64,000 nucleotides of DNA from Candidatus Saccharimonadia bacterium (GTDB lineage Bacteria; Patescibacteriota; Saccharimonadia; Saccharimonadales; JALRHH01): NCBI GenBank assembly GCA_023253175.1, contig JALRHH010000002.1, positions 128,199-192,198 on the forward strand, written 5' to 3'. Shown in pieces: positions 1,890-58,051 of the stretch. The notes below the pieces were generated by a model. The model was not told the DNA's origin, did not search any database, and saw nothing but the letters and a program-made list of their open reading frames with translations. Positions within the stretch are counted from its first letter, which is position 1. Every line of letters starts with the position of its first letter. A program made the translations under genes and the position numbers.

Positions 1890-3764
1890 CTAGTACAGTG
1901 CGGCTGCTTTTGGAAGAATTGATCCGTTCAGGATTTCAATGACTTCTTCAGCTTCTACGGTTTCCTTCTCAAGCAAGGCCTTCTTTAGCTCCTCGAGCTT
2001 TGGCTTATTCGCCTTGATCACTTCGCGGGCGCGCACGGCAGCCTCGGTAATCAATGCTTCAACCTCATCATCAATAACCTTGGCTGTTTCATCGGAATAT
2101 TGCTTTTCGTGAACCATGCGCTCCAGCATCATACCTTCTTCAACATGGAATACCTGATCACGAAGCTTTTGACCCATTCCTTGGTTAACAACCATTTCCC
2201 GGGCTAGTTCAGCCGCTTTCTGAAGATCAGACCCAGCACCAGTCGTTACTCGGTCCTTACCATACATAACTTCTTCGGCGATACGACCACCAAGCATACG
2301 CGCGAGCACATCCTTGTATTCAACAATACTGTGGTAACTCTTGTCTTCTGGTGGAATAAACCATGTTACGCCACCAGTACCACCACGTGGAATAATTGTC
2401 ACCTTGTGCACCATGTCGCTGTCAGGAAGTACATGACCAACAATCGCGTGACCAGCTTCGTGATACGCAGTCAGCTCCTTTTCCTTGTCGCTCATGATCT
2501 TGCCCTTGCGCTCTGGACCAATCGCAACCTTCTCAAAGGCTGCAGTTACGTCAGCTTGGGTAATTTCTTTACTGTTGTGACGCGCTGCAACAATTGCAGA
2601 TTCGTTTGCAATATTTGCGAGATCAGCACCAGATGAGCCAGCAGTCTTTGCAGCCAAAGCATCAAGATCAACAGACTTAGATGCAGGCTTTTTCTCAAAG
2701 TGCTTCTTAAGAATTGCCTCGCGCTCCTTGCGGTCTGGCAAACCAACGGTCACACGGCGATCGAAACGGCCCGGACGAAGCAGTGCTGGATCAAGCACGT
2801 CAACACGGTTGGTTGCAGCGATCACGATAACATTCGCACCTTGCTCGAATCCGTCCATCTCGGTCAAGATCTGGTTAAGTGTCTGTTCACGCTCGTCATG
2901 TCCACCGCCCATTCCAGAACCACGGCGACGTCCAACCGCATCAATCTCATCAATAAAGATAATGCACGGTGCATTCTTTTTGGCCTTCGCAAATAGGTCA
3001 CGAACACGGCTTGCACCCACACCAACAAACATTTCCACAAATTCTGAACCAGAAATACTAAAGAATGGTACGTCAGCTTCACCAGCAACTGCGCGGGCGA
3101 TCATCGTCTTACCGGTTCCAGGAGGGCCAACTAACAGCACTCCCTTTGGAATCTTAGCGCCAACAGATTCAAATTTTTTAGGGAACTTCAGGAATTCTAC
3201 AACTTCTTCGAGATCCTGCTTTGACTCCTGGTAGCCAGCAATATCCTTGAAACTAACCTTACCCTTTTCGTTTCCGTATAAACGAGCTCTGCTCTTACCA
3301 AAGCTCATCGCCTGGTTACCCTGACCCTGGGCGCTGCGCATCATGAACAGCAGCACACCGATAATCAACACGACTGGCAACATGGTCAGCAGTACACTAC
3401 CCCATATCGAACCTGACTTTGATTCTTCTTTGTATTCGACATCAACCTTACCGTAGTCAACGCCTTCTTCTCGGAGACTCACGTTCGAGTTAACGCGTGA
3501 CTTTAATGTGGGCTCGTTCTTTCCCTGTTCTGTAATTTCCAGAGCAGCACCAGTAACTACGATTTTCTTATACTTACCATCATTAACTTGTTGAATTACT
3601 TCACTAAGGTCAACTTCTTTAAGCTGCTGCTTGTTATTGCCATAGGAGCCAAAAATGATTAATCCGATAAGTACGAGCAACGCGATGAAACCAGCGTTCT
3701 TAATCGTACGCTTTTTCTGGTCACCCCCACTTTTCTTTGATGTGCGAAAAGGTTTTTTATCCAT
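1890..3764 (-). CDS. ftsH: ATP-dependent zinc metalloprotease FtsH
   Basis: Walker A GPPGTGKT, Walker B IIFIDEID, second region of homology, HEAGH zinc site, N-terminal TM segments. Confidence 0.96.
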
Positions 3765-5251: not shown

Positions 5252-5280
5252 TAGCCAACAGATGTAAAATCTGCTATATT
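5252..5280 (+). promoter_or_regulatory. Candidate sigma70-type promoter of the tRNA(CAT) locus
   Basis: TAGCCA (5252-5257), 17-nt spacer, TATATT (5275-5280). It lies 17 nt upstream of the first tRNA-derived base at 5297. Confidence 0.4.
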
Positions 5281-5325
5281 AACGGCTGATTCTCATGGCG
5301 GCGTAGCTCAGTTGGTTAGAGCGCA

Positions 5326-5443
5326 TTAATAATTCAGAATTTTTTTGGGGCGGCGTAGCTCAGTTGGTTAGAGCGCAGGACTCATAAGCCTGAGGTCACA
5401 GGTTCGAACCCCGTCGCCGCTACCAAAAAAGCGCTGAATTATT
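5326..5443 (+). repeat. Insert 1 of the dissected tRNA: inverted-repeat-bounded segment that carries the intact tRNA
   Basis: Perfect 11-bp inverted repeat TAATAATTCAG (5327-5337) / CTGAATTATTA (5434-5444). A T7 run (5340-5346) and an A-run (5425-5430) immediately flank the tRNA. Confidence 0.75.
5349..5425 (+). tRNA. tRNA with CAT anticodon (elongator Met or lysidine-dependent Ile2), CCA encoded
   Basis: Hand-folded cloverleaf: acceptor GGCGGCG/CGCCGCT, D arm GCTC-AGTTGGTTA-GAGC, anticodon loop CTCATAA, T arm ACAGG-TTCGAAC-CCCGT, then ACCA. There is one A-G mismatch at 31-39. Confidence 0.9.
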
Positions 5444-5673
5444 AGGACTCATATTCGAGGACGCGCGCAGGGGCTTGCGCCGAGCACGCCGCAAGAATAT
5501 ATGCAATATAAGCCTGTCGCGCCTTGCGCTCAGCATCTGTGATATATAAAGTTAACGCGTATTAGTTCGCCGACACCACTCACCCGTCCAATTAGCGTGA
5601 ACTCAGAAACTTCCCAAGTTTCTTCAGGTCACAGGTTCGAACCCCGTCGCCGCTACCATATAGAATATTTGTG

Positions 5674-5705
5674 AAAATGACGACTTTTTGGTCGTCATTT
5701 TTGTG
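5674..5705 (+). terminator. Intrinsic terminator after the tRNA locus
   Basis: Stem ATGACGAC (5677-5684) / GTCGTCAT (5691-5698), loop TTTTTG, followed by a T-run and preceded by an A-run. Confidence 0.7.
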
Positions 5706-13019: not shown

Positions 13020-13073
13020 TTGTTAGCTAAACAGCCGCGGATACATGCTCAAGGTTCTCGTATCCGCTAGTAA

Positions 13074-13148
13074 CGCGGGGTAGAGCAGTGGCAGCTCGTG
13101 TGGCTCATAACCACAAGGTCGCAGGTTCGAGTCCTGCCCCCGCTACCA
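13074..13148 (+). tRNA. Initiator tRNA-fMet (CAT), CCA encoded
   Basis: 5' CGCGGGG with a C1-U72 mismatch, D arm GAGC-AGTGGCA-GCTC, anticodon loop CTCATAA, T arm GCAGG-TTCGAGT-CCTGC. Close resemblance to E. coli tRNA-fMet. Confidence 0.9.
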
Positions 13149-13155
13149 AGAAAAG

Positions 13156-13183
13156 AGTCCGATCGAAAGATTGGGCTTTTTTC
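13156..13183 (+). terminator. Intrinsic terminator of tRNA-fMet
   Basis: Stem AGTCCGATC / GATTGGGCT (two G-U pairs), GAAA tetraloop, then a T6 run. Confidence 0.7.
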
Positions 13184-13231
13184 TTGGTCATGAAGCTGAT
13201 ACGGATCTGTGACCAACCAGCTTTAGCTGGC

Positions 13232-13321
13232 AAGGTCGTAGGTTCGGTCGACAAGCCTGCTCACAGGAATTCATTCCGAGAACAAGTGCAGTCGTGCGCT
13301 GCCTGCCCCCGCTATCACAGG
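13232..13321 (+). pseudogene. Broken duplicates of the 3' half of tRNA-fMet
   Basis: AAGGTCGTAGGTTCGGTC...CCTGC (13232-13260) and CCTGCCCCCGCTATCA (13302-13317) match the tRNA's AAGGTCGCAGGTTCGAGTCCTGCCCCCGCTACCA with 3 substitutions and inserted segments. Both parts are followed by TCACAGG. Confidence 0.6.
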
Positions 13322-19931: not shown

Positions 19932-21632
19932 TTAACTTCCGAATGTAAATGCGTTTAGTTCGACGCCGTTTGGAACCCTAAGCTCCAGTATGCCGCCCTC
20001 TTTGAATGAATCGTATTTGACGATCCGGTACAGGCGATATTCGCCGACCATGACATTGCTCTGCTTAACATCATCACCGCCAACGCCATCCATACTTATT
20101 GGTTGATTGTTCAACTGAACAGCTACCTTCGCTGGGTCCATTGAACCCATTACTACATACGCTTCTTTGGCTGAAATATTAAACCGAAGGATACTATCGC
20201 CGCGCGCAATAATCTTTTTATCCTGTACCTCCCATGTGCCGCCAAGTGTCCAGTGATTCTTGGTCAGATTATCGGCTGCCGTGAAGGTCTGCGTTTTTAC
20301 TGCACCCAGTGCTTTGTCGTTCTGGAAGTTACTTGCCCTGGTAAGGCCGAGGTAGGTTTCGGGCGTTTGGCGATTTGTGACCGGGACATTACTTGAGCCA
20401 CTGGTTGTATTCACCCCCTTTAGATTTGTACCCTTTTCTTCAAGTAGCAACCTAATTGCCTGTTCGGTCTTGTCGTACTCGCCTTCACCTTCGTGAATAC
20501 GACGTACCTTCCCTTCTGCGTCAATCAAGTATCCAGCCGGCCAAGACCTATTCTGGAAAGCAGCCCAGGTAGAAAAATCATTATCAAGTGCAACTGGGTA
20601 CGGAATCTTTTGGTCTTTTACGGCCTTTTGCACGTTGCTAGCGTTTTTCTCAAAAGCAAACTCTGGTGCATGGACTCCGACGATCACAAACCCTTTGTCT
20701 TTATAGGTGTTATACCACTCAATAAGATACGGATTATTTCGGATGCAGTTTATGCAGCTGTACGTCCAAAAATCGACTAGTACAACTTTGCCCTTAAGAT
20801 CATCTTTTGTTAGTGGCTTACCATTAATCCAGTCTGTCAGTCCTGTAAATTCGGGGGCTGCATATGGATCAGACACATTCAAAACTTCACTATTAGTTTC
20901 CCTGCCGGACGGCAGTAATTTACTACTAAGGCTATCGAAATTAAACGGTGTATGAGTGGATACCCAAGTTTGGAATCTTTTGTCATACCCAGTGATGATG
21001 AAAATACCCACCACAATAAACAATATCGCAATTGCCCGTTGGAACTTACCCTTAGGATCGCTGGCAAACCGAATCTTTGATACAAACCGCTGACCATAGT
21101 AACCGATAAGCAATAACACCAAACTTAGGCCCAGAATATAAAAGACAATGTAGGCCATAGCCTGCCCAAAATTAACTGGCAAAACTGTCGCAAGAATATA
21201 TGCATACACGGGGCTGCAACTAGAAAATACCGGGCCAAGTGCTGCACCAATTATGATTGGACCGAGGTATTTGCGCTGATCTTTATAACCTTTACTGAGC
21301 GTAGTTTGTGCACGCTGTTCAATACCAAGTCTCGCAATGATCCTGGCATACACTGAGGGGAACAGCGTGAGCAGACCAAGCCCAATAATGATGACGCCAG
21401 ATGCATAGGTAAATGTGAGTGGAGAAACATCAATGAAAAGTGTTGTTGCCTTTAATGCCAGTGTGAAAATAAATAATGAGACAGCTAATGATAGCGCGAT
21501 TATTATTGGACGTTTCTTGTCCTTAACATCTCCACTTACCGAACCTCCGATAATGATAGGCAATAGCGCCAGCACACAAGGTGCTAAAACAGTTAGCACA
21601 CCCGCGATAAATGAACCGAATAATAGCAACAT
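19932..21632 (-). CDS. DipZ-like fusion: CcdA/DsbD membrane thiol-electron transporter + TlpA-like thioredoxin + C-terminal beta domain
   Basis: TM cysteines (LAPCVLALLP and SSCSPVYAY), thioredoxin motif FWTYSCINCIRNNPYL, 566 aa. Confidence 0.85.
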   Translation of the reverse strand: MLLLFGSFIAGVLTVLAPCVLALLPIIIGGSVSGDVKDKKRPIIIALSLAVSLFIFTLALKATTLFIDVSPLTFTYASGVIIIGLGLLTLFPSVYARIIARLGIEQRAQTTLSKGYKDQRKYLGPIIIGAALGPVFSSCSPVYAYILATVLPVNFGQAMAYIVFYILGLSLVLLLIGYYGQRFVSKIRFASDPKGKFQRAIAILFIVVGIFIITGYDKRFQTWVSTHTPFNFDSLSSKLLPSGRETNSEVLNVSDPYAAPEFTGLTDWINGKPLTKDDLKGKVVLVDFWTYSCINCIRNNPYLIEWYNTYKDKGFVIVGVHAPEFAFEKNASNVQKAVKDQKIPYPVALDNDFSTWAAFQNRSWPAGYLIDAEGKVRRIHEGEGEYDKTEQAIRLLLEEKGTNLKGVNTTSGSSNVPVTNRQTPETYLGLTRASNFQNDKALGAVKTQTFTAADNLTKNHWTLGGTWEVQDKKIIARGDSILRFNISAKEAYVVMGSMDPAKVAVQLNNQPISMDGVGGDDVKQSNVMVGEYRLYRIVKYDSFKEGGILELRVPNGVELNAFTFGS

Positions 21633-44110: not shown

Positions 44111-45652
44111 CTATTTTATTTCTATGTCTTCGCCGAAGTGTTTTTCTAGTCTCTTTTTGATGCTGCCTGGATGGCGGCCGAAATGATTACTTAACATGTT
44201 AAGTGTTTCTTTGTTTTCAAATCTTGACTTCAACTCTTCATCGTCCGCTTCTTTCCACGGCATGTAGGCATTTGGGAATTCTTCGCGCATTTTGGCGAGC
44301 TTTTCCGACCAATCAGATTTTGGCTTTTCAGGTACCTCTTCTTCTGGCTGATCCTTTCGCTTTTCCTCGTCCTGGTGCCACTTTTCAATGACCGCAGCAT
44401 AGGTTGCCAGCGCATCATCGCTGCGTTTCCGCAGTTCACTGTCAATTTGCCTTGCGAGCGGGCTTGTCTTTAGTGCCATACCATTCAGTCCATCCAGCGC
44501 CAGCTGTTTCATGCTCTTCACACGAGAAAGCGCAACATACCCCATGCCTTCGACAAACGCGCGGCGCAGGTCAATATGTGCTGCATCCAACGTCATGCCC
44601 TGGCTCTTGTGCACTGTGATCGCCCATGCAAGGCGAATTGGTAGCTGCGTCAGTGTTGCCCGGCGCTTGTCGCCATCAACGAGCTCCCAAGTCTCAGGTG
44701 AAATCGTTAGCTTGCGGCCATTATTTAGTTGCACAATTGGATACTCAGTTTCATCATCAAACCCTACCACCACACCAAGCGATCCATTCACGTATTTGCG
44801 GTCCTGGCTGTTTTTAATACACATGACGTGCGCGCCTTTTTTCAGGAACAGAACTTCGGGCGCCAAGCATGATCGCATTAACTGCTCTACATATTTTTTG
44901 CCGCCACTTGTTTCCATGCTGTATTCGTACATGTCACCATCAAGTCTCTGCAGTTCGCCGTCATTAATGCGATCAACATCAGCATTGGTTGTCAGCAACC
45001 TTGTACGAGGCGTGAATGGATCAAGGGCAACTTCAATCCTATCCTGCAGAGCGGTTAGTTGATTACGCGTCAGTACGCCGCCACGGATGCCGTTTAGGAT
45101 TTGGGCATAGGTGTCGTCTTCACTCTGACGATACTGCTTCTCCAGGTAGCAGACTGCAAAATCCCCATCTTGCCATGCACTCGAAGACAGCACAAAACTA
45201 CCACTGCGGCCCTCTGATCGGTTTACTGGAGGCAACTGGAAGAAATCACCGACCAGCACGACCTGTAGCCCGCCAAACGGCTCGGCATTTCCGCGGACGT
45301 ACCGAGTAACTTCCTCGATCATGTCCAACCGAAAGTCATGGAGCATACTGATCTCGTCGATAATTAGAATATCTGCCTTGGCTATCAAACCTTGCCGCTG
45401 CTTACCAAGCTTCTGAAAAAAGAGCTGCGGAAGCTCGTCATGTACACCGATGCCTGCCCATGCATGAATAGTGGCACCGTTCAGGTGCGTCGCAGCCAGT
45501 CCGGTCGTGGCTGTTACGGCGATGCTCTTGCCCCGGCGTTTGCTACGACGAATAAACTCATTCATGAGATACGTCTTACCGGTACCAGCTGCACCTGTTA
45601 ACAGGACCGACTGGCCCGACTCTAAAATAGCTAAAGCTTCTGCCTGCGTCAT
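44111..45652 (-). CDS. PIF1/RecD-type superfamily-1 DNA helicase
   Basis: Walker A LLTGAAGTGKTY, Walker B ILIIDEISM, LVGDFFQLPPV, and C-terminal ITVHKSQGMT motifs. Confidence 0.85.
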   Translation of the reverse strand: MTQAEALAILESGQSVLLTGAAGTGKTYLMNEFIRRSKRRGKSIAVTATTGLAATHLNGATIHAWAGIGVHDELPQLFFQKLGKQRQGLIAKADILIIDEISMLHDFRLDMIEEVTRYVRGNAEPFGGLQVVLVGDFFQLPPVNRSEGRSGSFVLSSSAWQDGDFAVCYLEKQYRQSEDDTYAQILNGIRGGVLTRNQLTALQDRIEVALDPFTPRTRLLTTNADVDRINDGELQRLDGDMYEYSMETSGGKKYVEQLMRSCLAPEVLFLKKGAHVMCIKNSQDRKYVNGSLGVVVGFDDETEYPIVQLNNGRKLTISPETWELVDGDKRRATLTQLPIRLAWAITVHKSQGMTLDAAHIDLRRAFVEGMGYVALSRVKSMKQLALDGLNGMALKTSPLARQIDSELRKRSDDALATYAAVIEKWHQDEEKRKDQPEEEVPEKPKSDWSEKLAKMREEFPNAYMPWKEADDEELKSRFENKETLNMLSNHFGRHPGSIKKRLEKHFGEDIEIK

Positions 45653-45748: not shown

Positions 45749-47110
45749 ATGAACGTTTTTATGGATCGTATTCACGGTACGGAGATGGAATGGGGAGCAA
45801 TGGTGGTCCACCCCAAGCAGAGTATGCAATTCCAGCTTAACGGCAATGTCCTCGAGGATCATGTCAAAGAAGCGATGACCAAAAATGGAACTGCTTTCAT
45901 CGGCCGAAATAATGACCACTATCTAGAAAATGGAGCACGTCTTTATCGTGATGGCTACGAGCGCTGGGAATATGCCACTCCGGAAGATATATCTTATGCA
46001 GGCACAACCGCAAACGAGTTTGCGGGCGAACGTTATTTAGCAGACACTGCCGCCCTGTACAAAGAAGAGACGGGGAATAATATTTCGTTTACTAAGCGAG
46101 TTATTGATGATAAGGAACGAAGCTGCGGGTATCACGTCAGCTATTGCCTAGACGCCAAAAAAGTTAAGATCACCGAGGATGCGCTTGCCTTGTATGGCGT
46201 ATTTGCGGCCACTAGAAGTGTGGTATTTGGATCAGGCGCTCTGCTCCCTGGCGGAAAATTCATACTCGGCCAAAAGGCGTTTACTGCAAACTGCGATTAT
46301 AGCCCCCACACCATACGCCAAAAGCCAGTTGTTAACCTCAGGGATGAACCTCTTGCAAACCCTGATAAATTTACCCGTTTTCATGACACCCTAATTGATC
46401 CGAGCATGTCCCCCTGGTCATCACGTGTAAAGATTGCGGCCGGATCGATTGTTGCTCGTATGGTTGAGGCCAACGAACACATGCCCTGGCTCAGGTTCGA
46501 CAGCCCGCTTTGTCTGGTTGCCCGCAATACCAGTGCCGATAACAGGCTTGCACTTCAACATCGACTCATCAGTGGCAACTACATATCTGCCATTGATGTA
46601 CAGCAAATTATAGTAAAACACGCTCGACACCTTGCAGAAGAGAGCACTATCAGCTTGAACGATGAAGAACAATGGGCACTCGAAGAGTGGGAGGGCGCGC
46701 TCAAAGACTTGGCGCAAAATCCCGCACTTACTAACAGAAGAATAGAGTGGATTGATAGGCTGAAAATCCTGGACCGCCAGCACGAAAGGCATGGATACGG
46801 CTGGGATAGCGAGTATTTGCGCTACAAGGACAGGCAGTTTAGTGAAATTGCCACTCAAGGAATAGCTAAGGCGCTCCGGGAAACTATCTGGTCAGAATAC
46901 ATGCCAGAAAATTCACTCATTAAAGAAAGAATGCATCGTCCACCCGCAACGCGGGCAGCCATTAGGGGCAGGTTTATACAGAAAGTAGCAGACCGGCCCA
47001 ATGCTAACTTATCAAGAATTATGTGGAGTAATATTCGATACAGGGGCGTGGACTATCAACTGTCCGACCCGTATCAGTCCACCGACCAAGACCTTGATGC
47101 TATTGCGTAA
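45749..47110 (+). CDS. Pup-ligase/deamidase family protein (PafA/Dop homolog)
   Basis: [53 protein letters not shown] and [12 protein letters not shown] align with M. tuberculosis PafA segments [51 protein letters not shown] and TTRARLRGEFI, recalled from memory. Alternative start 45761 (MDRIHG). Confidence 0.8.
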   Translation: [453 protein letters not shown]

Positions 47111-55836: not shown

Positions 55837-56085
55837 AAAAATACCCTCATTCTCTGATGCGAAAATGAGGGGACTAAAATACTTAGGCACTTCACTCTTG
55901 CTCGAGAGATTTTATCGCTGTATCGGACTTTAACCGTTGCGGCACAGTTCAGGAATTTCACCTGCTTCCAGCTCTATGTTTTTGTAAAAGTTACGCTTAT
56001 CTTATCACGAAAATAGGACGCTAGATGTAGTAGTATACGCTACAGCTAGTGCCCTATTTGTATGTCATACACCAGGGGTGGTGTA

Positions 56086-57604: not shown

Positions 57605-58051
57605 CTACGAAGCCACCTTTAGTTCAGATAATCTTGGGATAAAGGAATGTGCCGCCCCGTCCAGACCGAGCACCTTTAAAGCACCAATTAATACATATAG
57701 TTCATCGAGCTGTTTCTGGGTAAGACTAGACGATTCGGCCTCACTAAACAACAATTCAACTTTTTGCACCAGCCACTTCTCCTCTGATGGCTTTACTGAT
57801 ACCGGTGCCGCAGTCTCCTTAGCGCTTGCAACGACCTCAATAGAGCGCGCTGAATGGTCACGCTTGATTAAATGTCCCCGCTTAATCAGGCTATTTACAT
57901 GCAGCGCCACCGTAGCCACCGAGTTGTACCCAAGGCCGCTCATAATCTCACGGTAACTTGGGCTGTAGCCGTGCTCGCTAATAAAACCTTCGATATAGGT
58001 CAATAGTTCACGCTGTTTTTTAGTTGGTCGTACGTTCGTTGTATCAGGCAT
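57605..58051 (-). CDS. LexA-type winged-helix DNA-binding domain protein lacking the S24 peptidase domain
   Basis: The N-terminal 70 aa (TKKQRELLTYIEGFISEHGYSPSYREIMSGLGYNSVATVALHVNSLIKRGHLIK) match the LexA N-domain. The C-terminal 75 aa have no Ala-Gly site or Ser/Lys dyad. Confidence 0.65.
   Translation of the reverse strand: MPDTTNVRPTKKQRELLTYIEGFISEHGYSPSYREIMSGLGYNSVATVALHVNSLIKRGHLIKRDHSARSIEVVASAKETAAPVSVKPSEEKWLVQKVELLFSEAESSSLTQKQLDELYVLIGALKVLGLDGAAHSFIPRLSELKVAS

Follow-up and report, generated by a model that had tools for sequence, protein, structure and literature searches.

In a 64-kb stretch of an ordinary chromosome of Candidatus Saccharibacteria (TM7, candidate phyla radiation (CPR)), hereafter the window, a gene for tRNA-Met(CAT) was found to be dissected by three inserts, the first of which carries a complete copy of the same gene. 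Joined together, the four outer pieces (exons 1–4, Table 1) give a 77-nt tRNA-Met(CAT) that is identical at 77/77 positions to the intact inner tRNA (5349-5425) sitting within insert 1; the outer pieces are a second, nested copy of the tRNA-Met gene around the inner one. The dissected architecture recurs in three other Saccharibacteria metagenome-assembled genomes (MAGs; L004, L073 and L081), the insert sequences of which have strongly diverged. In 4/4 loci the exon pieces total exactly 77 nt and, once joined, are identified by ARAGORN as tRNA-Met(CAT). Inserts 2 and 3 are orthologously inherited in this outer gene. The reading tentatively favoured here, with somewhat less than even confidence, is that the inserts are intron-like intervening sequences of a co-transcribed second tRNA-Met, which would be excised, and the exons ligated, by a protein-dependent pathway independent of the bulge-helix-bulge (BHB) motif.

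The nested locus and its orthologues

The first-pass annotation of the window had taken the inserts for real intervening sequences of a dissected tRNA, and the orthologous loci bear this out. Its remark that neither insert 2 nor insert 3 is long enough for a group I or group II intron was likewise confirmed (57 and 109 nt, with no Rfam family match). Group I and II introns, ribozymes and any other Rfam family were rejected as identities of the inserts, no match being obtained at the gathering threshold and no intron match at E values up to 10. The syntenic loci were fetched via homologues of TilS and of the histidine phosphatase (His_Phos), and a genome scan with TilS gave two relatives; the TilS identity of the window to L004 was 63%, and the His_Phos identity of the window to L004, L073 and L081 was 62-74%. 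Two further relatives (L077 and L005) carry a plain tRNA-Met, and several others have no tRNA at the syntenic place.

Table 1. Features of the composite tRNA-Met locus in the window, with lengths (nt) at the four dissected loci
Feature	Position in window	Strand	Window	L004	L073	L081	Remarks
Sigma-70-like promoter (TAGCCA, 17 nt, TG-TATATT)	5252-5280	+					Upstream of outer 5' piece; sole promoter-like site for the composite locus
Leader (-10 box to exon 1)			16	27	20	51	
Outer exon 1	5297-5325	+	29	27	27	27	tRNA positions 1-28 (acceptor 5' strand, D arm, first 2 nt of anticodon stem); 29/29 nt identical to 5349-5377
Insert 1	5326-5444	+					Complementary arms 5327-5348 / 5423-5444 around complete inner tRNA-Met(CAT) 5349-5425; ARAGORN and Rfam tRNA calls
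Outer exon 2 (GGACTCATA)	5445-5453	+	9	11	11	11	tRNA positions 29-37 (anticodon stem 5' strand, loop through CAU-A37); conserved in all four loci
Insert 2 (54 nt + ATA)	5454-5510	+	54	54	54	55	tRNA position 37/38; same position in four loci; lengths counted before ATA
Outer exon 3 (AGCCTG)	5511-5516	+	6	6	6	6	tRNA positions 38-43; invariant in four loci
Insert 3	5517-5625	+	109	75	77	0	tRNA position 43/44; in the window GC hairpin, AT-rich middle, terminal hairpin
Outer exon 4	5626-5658	+	33	33	33	33	tRNA positions 44-76 (variable loop, T arm, acceptor 3' strand, CCA); 33/33 nt identical to 5393-5425
Intrinsic terminator (predicted)	5670-5705	+					Closes the composite unit; none between inner tRNA and exon 4

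In every one of the four loci, insert 1 holds a whole inner tRNA between complementary arms, which in the window form a 22-nt inverted repeat (86% complementary). The insertion points are structural: insert 2 lies at 37/38, and inserts 1 and 3 lie precisely where the anticodon arm begins and ends (26/27 and 43/44). Insert 1 was placed at 26/27 in L004, L073 and L081 and at 28/29 in the window. This 2-nt 'sliding' was not used as evidence, as exon 1 of the window can also be parsed as positions 1-26 (5297-5323), position 27 then being U, and an insertion at 26/27 with C27U fits as well. In L081 insert 3 is missing precisely to the nucleotide. Insert 2 has ATA on both sides in 4/4 loci, and the direct repeat pointed out earlier in the window is present at both sites (5451-5453 and 5508-5510); rather than marking a target duplication, it is better explained by the conserved RNA helices P0 and P4 described below.

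A promoter of the form TAGCCA/TAGTCA-17-TATATT/TACAAT also precedes the outer 5' piece in L073, L081 and L004 and is conserved in the alignment, and a terminator also stands after exon 4 in L073 and directly after the inner tRNA in a decayed locus (L083, described below); the promoter and terminator of the locus are consensus matches only. The ORFs (open reading frames) over the tRNA locus reach just 25-46 aa, and hidden protein coding in the inserts was rejected on these grounds. No Pfam domain of an integrase, transposase, recombinase, RtcB or EndA was found in the ~50 larger of the 65 listed window ORFs, a scan that reached position 58051 and took in few of the ORFs below ~140 aa. The elongator tRNA-Met of the clade (5349-5425 in the window, and its relatives) pairs A with G at 31-39 (non-Watson-Crick), has a wobble at G1-U72 and a mismatch at A51-C63, and lies two genes away from tilS.

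An independent ENA assembly carries the identical locus and two Logan assemblies carry its first part, the two Logan contigs of the window strain ending within the inner tRNA. An assembly artefact was rejected on the strength of the independent assemblies and of the same architecture, with different sequence, in three other MAGs. Two Logan contigs from different organisms (L003 and L072) end at the same tRNA base (...GCGCAGGACTCA), which probably reflects a branch of the de Bruijn graph with tRNA-Met genes from other species of the sample. L072 has no insert 1: its first tRNA copy downstream of the promoter runs unbroken through position 35, and the contig ends inside this copy.

Constraint on the inserts and the outer exons

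The four orthologues of insert 2 align nearly gap-free, with an identity of 27-33/54 between lineages and of 50/54 for the close pair L004/L073, and they share a fold of three helices and a terminal hairpin. In the window this fold consists of P1 (5459-5463:5487-5491, 5 bp), P2 (5465-5466:5484-5485, 2 bp), P3 (5470-5473:5478-5481, 4 bp, closed by the CUUG tetraloop 5474-5477, the loop being CUUG or UUUA across loci) and P4 (5498-5502:5506-5510), a 5-bp hairpin that ends at the 3' junction and takes its 3' strand from the final five bases of the intron. In a further, alternative helix (P0), pairing joins 5451-5456 (A35-A37 and the first 3 intron nucleotides) with 5495-5500 (intron bases 42-47). 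The internal loop, CRCAG opposite CGAG, is invariant in the four loci; a kink-turn was considered for it and dropped, GA being found on one strand only. CUUG and UUUA are stable tetraloops of RNA type, as is the UGCG loop that L004 and L073 have in insert 3. Covariance analysis of the homologous inserts, a check already named in the first-pass annotation, gave 93.8% of cells paired and six covarying pairs for this fold, a result that rests on four sequences, two of them (L004/L073) from close relatives; 0/500 shuffles equalled the score, and slid controls had 20-44% of cells paired. RNAalifold independently recovered the anticodon stem, P0 and P1-P3, and the intron mode of ARAGORN called an intron at insert 2 in 3/4 loci. 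Judged by these alignments, insert 2 is under structural constraint at the RNA level. The hairpin CTTGCGCCG-AGCA-CGCCGCAAG (5474-5495), which had been described earlier as the one that insert 2 carries, does occur, with one C-C mismatch in 9-nt arms that are 89% complementary. As the functional fold of insert 2 it did not hold up, since 64% of its cells are paired in the four loci, with no covariation, against 94% and six covarying pairs for the three-helix fold.

Similar constraint was found in the insert-1 arms, which across the four loci have 94% of cells paired and four covarying pairs, and which on this comparison are also held at the RNA level. With regard to the outer copy, the exon total is fixed while the leader varies between 16 and 51 nt, and exons 2 and 3 together (positions 27-43) are identical at 15-17/17 positions in all locus pairs; gene conversion could not keep the two alike at so short a length. 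The outer copy of L004 differs from its inner copy at nine positions (outer-specific A5, U6, C8, A26, G31, G44, U60, A67 and U68), with compensatory changes at 5:68 and 6:67, and at the tertiary partners 26 and 44 the outer copies of L004 and L073 have exchanged G,A for A,G. The covariation in insert 2, together with the compensatory changes at 5:68 and 6:67 in L004, implies selection on RNA pairing.

Insert 3 occupies 43/44 in three loci (window, L004 and L073), and its sequence in the window is essentially unalignable with that of L004 and L073. The sequence GCGCCTTGCGC, which had been placed at its very start, is present but only from 5519, the insert itself beginning with TC; the GC hairpin GCGC-CTT-GCGC follows at 5519-5529. 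In all three loci a hairpin ends 0-3 nt before the 3' exon, a position that has been kept while the sequence has not. In the window this is the perfect hairpin (A)GAAACTT-CCC-AAGTTTC(T), which was recovered at 5605-5623, 2-3 nt before the 3' piece. The earlier observation that the inserts carry their own hairpins thus extends to L004 and L073, where the 3'-terminal hairpin keeps its place. An internal hairpin of insert 3 in L004 and L073 has completely different stems and the same UGCG loop. On the strand antisense to the tRNA, the hairpin at the 3' end of insert 3 has the form of an intrinsic terminator (stem + TTTT) in L004 (2552-2576) and L073 (3526-3550), and the same terminator-like module occurs in sense orientation in L083. 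Additionally, TCGCCGACACCA in insert 3 of the window (5567-5578) matches the tRNA 3' end TCGCCGCTACCA at 10/12 positions and has GTTCG before it; the match alone is not statistically significant, and it may be a remnant of an older 3' piece.

A pattern shared by inserts 2 and 3, CTTGCGC-NN-AGCA, had led to the proposal of a common origin or a common recognition element. The two copies, CTTGCGCTCAGCA at 5523-5535 (overlapping the GC hairpin of insert 3) and CTTGCGCCGAGCA at 5474-5486, were found and match at 11/13 positions, and both lie in small GC hairpins capped by CUU(G). In the 64-kb window, CTTGCGCNNAGCA has just these two exact matches; with one mismatch allowed, 4 matches were found against 1.6 expected. 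An 11/13 match between the inserts arose in 3% of dinucleotide-preserving shuffles (p ~0.03) and the exact 7-mer in 24%, the length of the motif window having been chosen after looking at the sequence, and the sharing is best regarded as marginal. The orthologues largely refute the proposal, which is now considered very improbable: insert 3 of L004 and L073 lacks the motif, L081 has no insert 3 and insert 2 keeps the motif in 4/4 loci, and the covariance model built on insert 2 gives no match to insert 3. What remains is a conserved element within insert 2, where YTTRCNYCGAGYA stands at the same place in 4/4 loci and makes up the tetraloop, the 3' strand of P3 and the CGAG internal loop, and which is not found in the orthologous insert 3.

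Possible readings: excision, scaffolding or decay

If the inserts are intron-like, the outer gene would be transcribed together with the inner tRNA-Met from the promoter to the terminator listed in Table 1, as a precursor of ~400 nt closed by the outer acceptor stem, as in the centroid structure. The insert-1 arms would present the inner pre-tRNA to ordinary RNase P and to 3' processing (3' trimming), insert 2 would pair with A35-A37 of the anticodon loop and form its three-helix hairpin, and insert 3 would stand at the base of the anticodon arm with a hairpin abutting its 3' junction. The inserts would then be cut out as short protein-dependent introns and the exon pieces joined to yield a second tRNA-Met, by a machinery neither of the archaeal BHB/EndA type nor self-splicing. 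At 10/11 3' junctions the 3' exon is preceded, at a distance of 0-1 nt, by the end of a helix, the exception being insert 3 of the window with a 2-nt gap; such a helix would, as a matter of speculation, suit a hairpin-measuring endonuclease. The intron-like reading is preferred because the exons sum to 77 nt in four loci with largely diverged inserts; because exons 2 and 3 are near-identical while insert 2 has diverged; because insert 2 has a conserved fold and the insert-1 arms covary; and because compensatory changes in L004 are accompanied by the 26/44 swap in L004 and L073. It is further preferred because of the structural insertion points, the ARAGORN intron call and the precise absence of insert 3 from L081, because the terminator stands after exon 4 in intact loci and after the inner tRNA in the decayed L083, and because there is no ORF in the locus and no integrase or transposase in or near it.

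Several observations weigh against this reading. A candidate endonuclease or ligase was not found among the scanned ORFs of the 64-kb window, none of the 11 junction pairs has a bulge-helix-bulge and no common splice-site sequence is apparent at them. The T arm of exon 4 equals the inner T arm in every genome, yet it differs between genomes, which points to homogenisation of exons 1 and 4 by gene conversion, so that the integrity of these two exons is no evidence of selection. Outer substitutions fall at normally conserved positions in three of the four loci (U8C in L004, C32G in L073, G22A and C25U in L081), which suggests that constraint on decoding has been relaxed. Every interrupted copy has an intact copy of its tRNA beside it, as would be expected if the interrupted copy were dispensable, and L083, L074 and the initiator locus of the window are decayed or partial versions. 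Finally, the covariation comes from four sequences only, two of them closely related.

Hardly any credence was given to BHB introns of the archaeal type, which an EndA-type splicing endonuclease gained by horizontal transfer would cut and RtcB would join. Several short introns in one tRNA, one at 37/38 and the others at non-canonical positions, are the pattern of the Thermoproteales (PMC4090602), and the anticodon pairs with the intron in helix P0. Nevertheless, the central 4-bp helix was present at 0/11 junction pairs in both geometries, even with the ATA ambiguity allowed (best, 3/4 pairs), so that the two 3-nt bulges 4 bp apart that define such introns are not formed and this origin was rejected; no EndA or RtcB gene occurs among the scanned window ORFs, and the tRNA is bacterial in type, with CCA encoded.

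A different account, judged rather improbable, is that the outer tRNA is an unspliced scaffold and does not decode, the acceptor stem and T arm forming a frame that would lend the RNA defined, nuclease-resistant ends and the inner tRNA and the insert-2 hairpin its functional cargo, for example as a protein-binding small RNA; the inserts would stay in the RNA or leave as fragments without ligation, like the rRNA intervening sequences (IVS) excised by RNase III. Such a role would suit the structural selection on insert 2 itself with its invariant CRCAG/CGAG internal loop, the outer acceptor stem that keeps pairing via compensatory change while U8, C32 and the D stem drift, and the insert-1 arms, which form a long interrupted helix like an rRNA processing stalk. 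Folding of the full precursor, as had been recommended earlier, gave for 362 nt a centroid that closes with the outer acceptor stem (z = -3.2), which also fits a scaffold, and Saccharibacteria rRNA genes carry short non-intron insertion sequences (PMC11270868). A scaffold leaves unexplained, however, the exon register of exactly 77 nt, the conserved U33, C34 and A38-G39 of the anticodon loop with the 26/44 co-variation, and the precise loss of insert 3; moreover, neither a matching RNA family in Rfam nor a protein partner was found for insert 2.

The locus might instead be a decaying relic, in which an ancestral tRNA-Met gene was disrupted in its DNA by a segment bringing a replacement tRNA (insert 1), the small hairpin-rich inserts 2 and 3 later entered the pieces, by then redundant, and the intact look of the pieces comes only from gene conversion by the inner copy and from the inserts preserving a structure of their own; this history was considered rather improbable. 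It would account for exons 4 and 1 evolving in concert with the inner copy in every genome, for outer substitutions clustering at exon edges and in the short exons, beyond the reach of conversion, and for an intact copy always being adjacent. Degenerate versions can be cited in its favour too, namely L083, L074 and the initiator fragment of the window (with its insert and CCA changed to TCA), as can an insert-3 block inverted in L083 and a possible second insert-2-like copy that hints at past mobility. On the other hand, a neutral relic in a streamlined genome of ~1 Mb should lose its register, whereas the leader varies (16-51 nt), the exons do not vary at all and insert 2 hardly does. Exons 2 and 3 (11 and 6 nt) are beyond maintenance by conversion, yet they are nearly invariant, and the insert-2 covariation and the 5:68 and 6:67 changes of L004 imply selection on RNA pairing. 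In addition, the inserts form no repeat family in the 119 kb examined, and no mobile-element genes lie nearby.

The degenerate loci are as follows. L083 2914-3287 is a decayed dissected elongator locus in which the 5' piece has mismatches, the inner tRNA is followed by a terminator of its own and the 3' piece ends in CTTCCA; within it, a 25-nt block of the L004/L073 insert 3 (GGTCAAGCAAGGAAAACGTAA) lies inverted at 3201-3225. L074 2584-2830 holds an intact tRNA-Met and, after it, a single incomplete copy (positions 39-65, 1 nt deleted), a hairpin-rich insert of ~90 nt at 65/66 and then CACCGCTACCA; a 25-nt direct repeat, CCGCTACCAGAAGTTGCAGAATGTA, follows both tRNA copies.

The possible mobility of insert 2 concerns the initiator-type tRNA-Met of the window (13074-13148), which is surrounded by tRNA-derived pieces (13035-13317). 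In the 64 kb and 55 kb of related loci, the sole non-self match of the insert-2 covariance model was 13250-13293 on the plus strand (21 bits, E 0.03-0.05), an insert interrupting a 3' fragment of initiator-type tRNA-Met (pieces 13232-13247 and 13302-13317) downstream of the gene. It shares RACAAGCC, CACAG, a stem-loop, CGAG and TGCAGT with the L004 insert 2 (local alignment p ~0.015). If this match is real, insert-2-like elements would have entered loops of different tRNA-derived sequences, which is suggested and not proven. Beyond it, neither blastn-short nor the covariance model detected other insert copies in the window and the 55 kb of related loci, and a MITE or REP (miniature inverted-repeat or repetitive extragenic palindromic) family was rejected for the 119 kb searched, no terminal inverted repeats being present and only the ATA repeat and this one weak further match having been found. 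A 16-nt exact match to insert 2 (CGCAAGAATATATGCA, 5490-5505) at 21189-21204 lies inside a DsbD/thioredoxin-fusion ORF; its flanks have no similarity, and it was taken as chance and not as a second copy. A metagenome scan with the pattern CTCATAN{40,70}ATATAAGCCTGTC, which is too specific, gave 66 chance matches in coding sequence and none at a tRNA, and scans of viral contigs with the insert-2 core and the exon 1/insert 1 junction gave 5 chance matches in ORFs.

Around the initiator tRNA itself, a hairpin upstream (CGCGGATAC...GTATCCGCTAGTAA) mimics its acceptor stem, and its terminator is followed by a 3' fragment CAAGGTCGTAGGTTCG, an insert of ~55 nt and CCTGCCCCCGCTATCA, with A58 missing and CCA changed to TCA; a CCAGC-TTTA-GCTGG hairpin abuts the start of this 3' fragment. 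Similarly, L083 4273-4516 holds an initiator tRNA, a terminator and then a second version of that tRNA's T-stem and acceptor 3' strand (TCGAGTCCTCCCCCCGCTAC). The L083 fragment matches its own tRNA and not that of the window, which indicates that tRNA and fragment evolve in concert.

Known systems, genomic setting and significance

The closest analogue in function would be the multi-intron tRNA genes of the Thermoproteales (PMC4090602). Introns of archaeal multi-intron and split tRNA genes (Thermoproteales, Nanoarchaeum) are removed by the EndA endonuclease and the RtcB ligase (PMC4090602; Kanai, PMC4390854). The shared traits are several non-self-splicing inserts of ~50-120 nt in one tRNA gene, one at the canonical 37/38 and the others at non-canonical positions (43/44 and 26/27), pairing between anticodon and intron, a cloverleaf restored by insert removal, and presence or absence among relatives. 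Unlike the archaeal introns, the inserts described here lie in a bacterial host, have no BHB at any junction and no known host endonuclease, and one of them encloses the same tRNA, complete and intact; an intact twin accompanies the interrupted gene in every case.

In phylogeny the closest system is the insertion sequences in Saccharibacteria rRNA (PMC11270868). Short insertion and intervening sequences are reported from CPR rRNA genes, including those of Saccharibacteria (Tsurumaki et al. 2024, PMC11270868). Of the Saccharibacteria sequences, 64/66 are of 250 bp or less and lack a group I/II core, and stem-loop tops or bases are where most of them sit (PMC11270868). The tRNA inserts resemble them in phylum, in size (250 bp or less), in lacking an ORF or a group I/II core, and in their sites, which are the anticodon loop and either end of the anticodon arm. 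The word tRNA is absent from the main text of that report, and tRNA inserts are not reported there (PMC11270868). As in the 23S rRNA IVS excised by RNase III, insert 1 has a long terminal helix; inserts 2 and 3, unlike IVS, lack a long terminal duplex and have just the 6-bp P0 helix or a terminal hairpin, and their host RNA is a tRNA, which would not be expected to function as unligated pieces.

Group I introns interrupt the anticodon loops of bacterial tRNA-Leu, fMet, Arg and Ile (PMC3984707, bioRxiv 10.1101/2020.01.27.920355). The present gene is likewise a bacterial tRNA gene interrupted in the anticodon loop, but at 57 and 109 nt the inserts are far under the size of a group I core (~200 nt or more for the catalytic core), they have no Rfam intron match even at the permissive E values used, and two further inserts lie outside the loop. 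Rickettsia palindromic elements and the REP and MITE families are short hairpin-rich inserts tolerated inside structured RNA genes, which the possible second copy in another tRNA-derived sequence recalls; unlike them, the inserts make up no multi-copy family in 119 kb, have no terminal inverted repeats and occupy orthologous, vertically inherited positions. Duplications of integrase attachment (att) sites at tRNA genes also leave partial copies beside an intact tRNA, and the anticodon loop is a known crossover sublocation. Partial copies beside an intact tRNA are seen here too, but the pieces are complementary and non-overlapping with only ATA repeated, the 'elements' would measure 54-119 nt and no integrase lies nearby; att scars were rejected, as such pieces would need extra precise deletions and no integrase was found in the scanned ORFs.

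In the window the tRNA locus follows murJ, ftsH, tilS and the histidine phosphatase gene and is itself followed by housekeeping genes. Elsewhere in the window, an AdoCbl-II cobalamin riboswitch was detected at 55910-55989 on the minus strand (39.5 bits, above the gathering score), upstream of a 541-aa ORF without a Pfam match. A PIF1-like helicase is encoded at 44111-45652 (minus strand) and a Pup-ligase family protein (PF03136, E 3e-66) at 45749-47110 (plus strand). Genes for pupylation are characteristic of Actinobacteria, the group that usually hosts Saccharibacteria.

Short introns spliced by proteins, like split tRNA genes, are regarded as hallmarks of Archaea and eukaryotes, and to our knowledge bacterial tRNA genes are thought to be interrupted solely by self-splicing introns of group I; within the literature on tRNA introns and inserts in CPR and Saccharibacteria, no report of such tRNA inserts in bacteria was found. 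If the intron-like reading is true, these would be the first non-self-splicing tRNA introns in Bacteria. A broader proposal, put forward as less likely than not, is that a clade of Saccharibacteria has BHB-independent, protein-dependent tRNA splicing, with mini-introns at 26/27, 37/38 and 43/44, one of them containing a complete tRNA gene, and that the insert-2 type may move between tRNA loops. Gene finders report the inner tRNA only, and such loci are consequently invisible in current annotation. The nine differences between the outer and inner copies in L004-like genomes would let tRNA sequencing tell splicing from its absence. The locus would reveal either a new RNA processing or splicing pathway in CPR bacteria or a natural use of tRNA as a scaffold for structured RNA.

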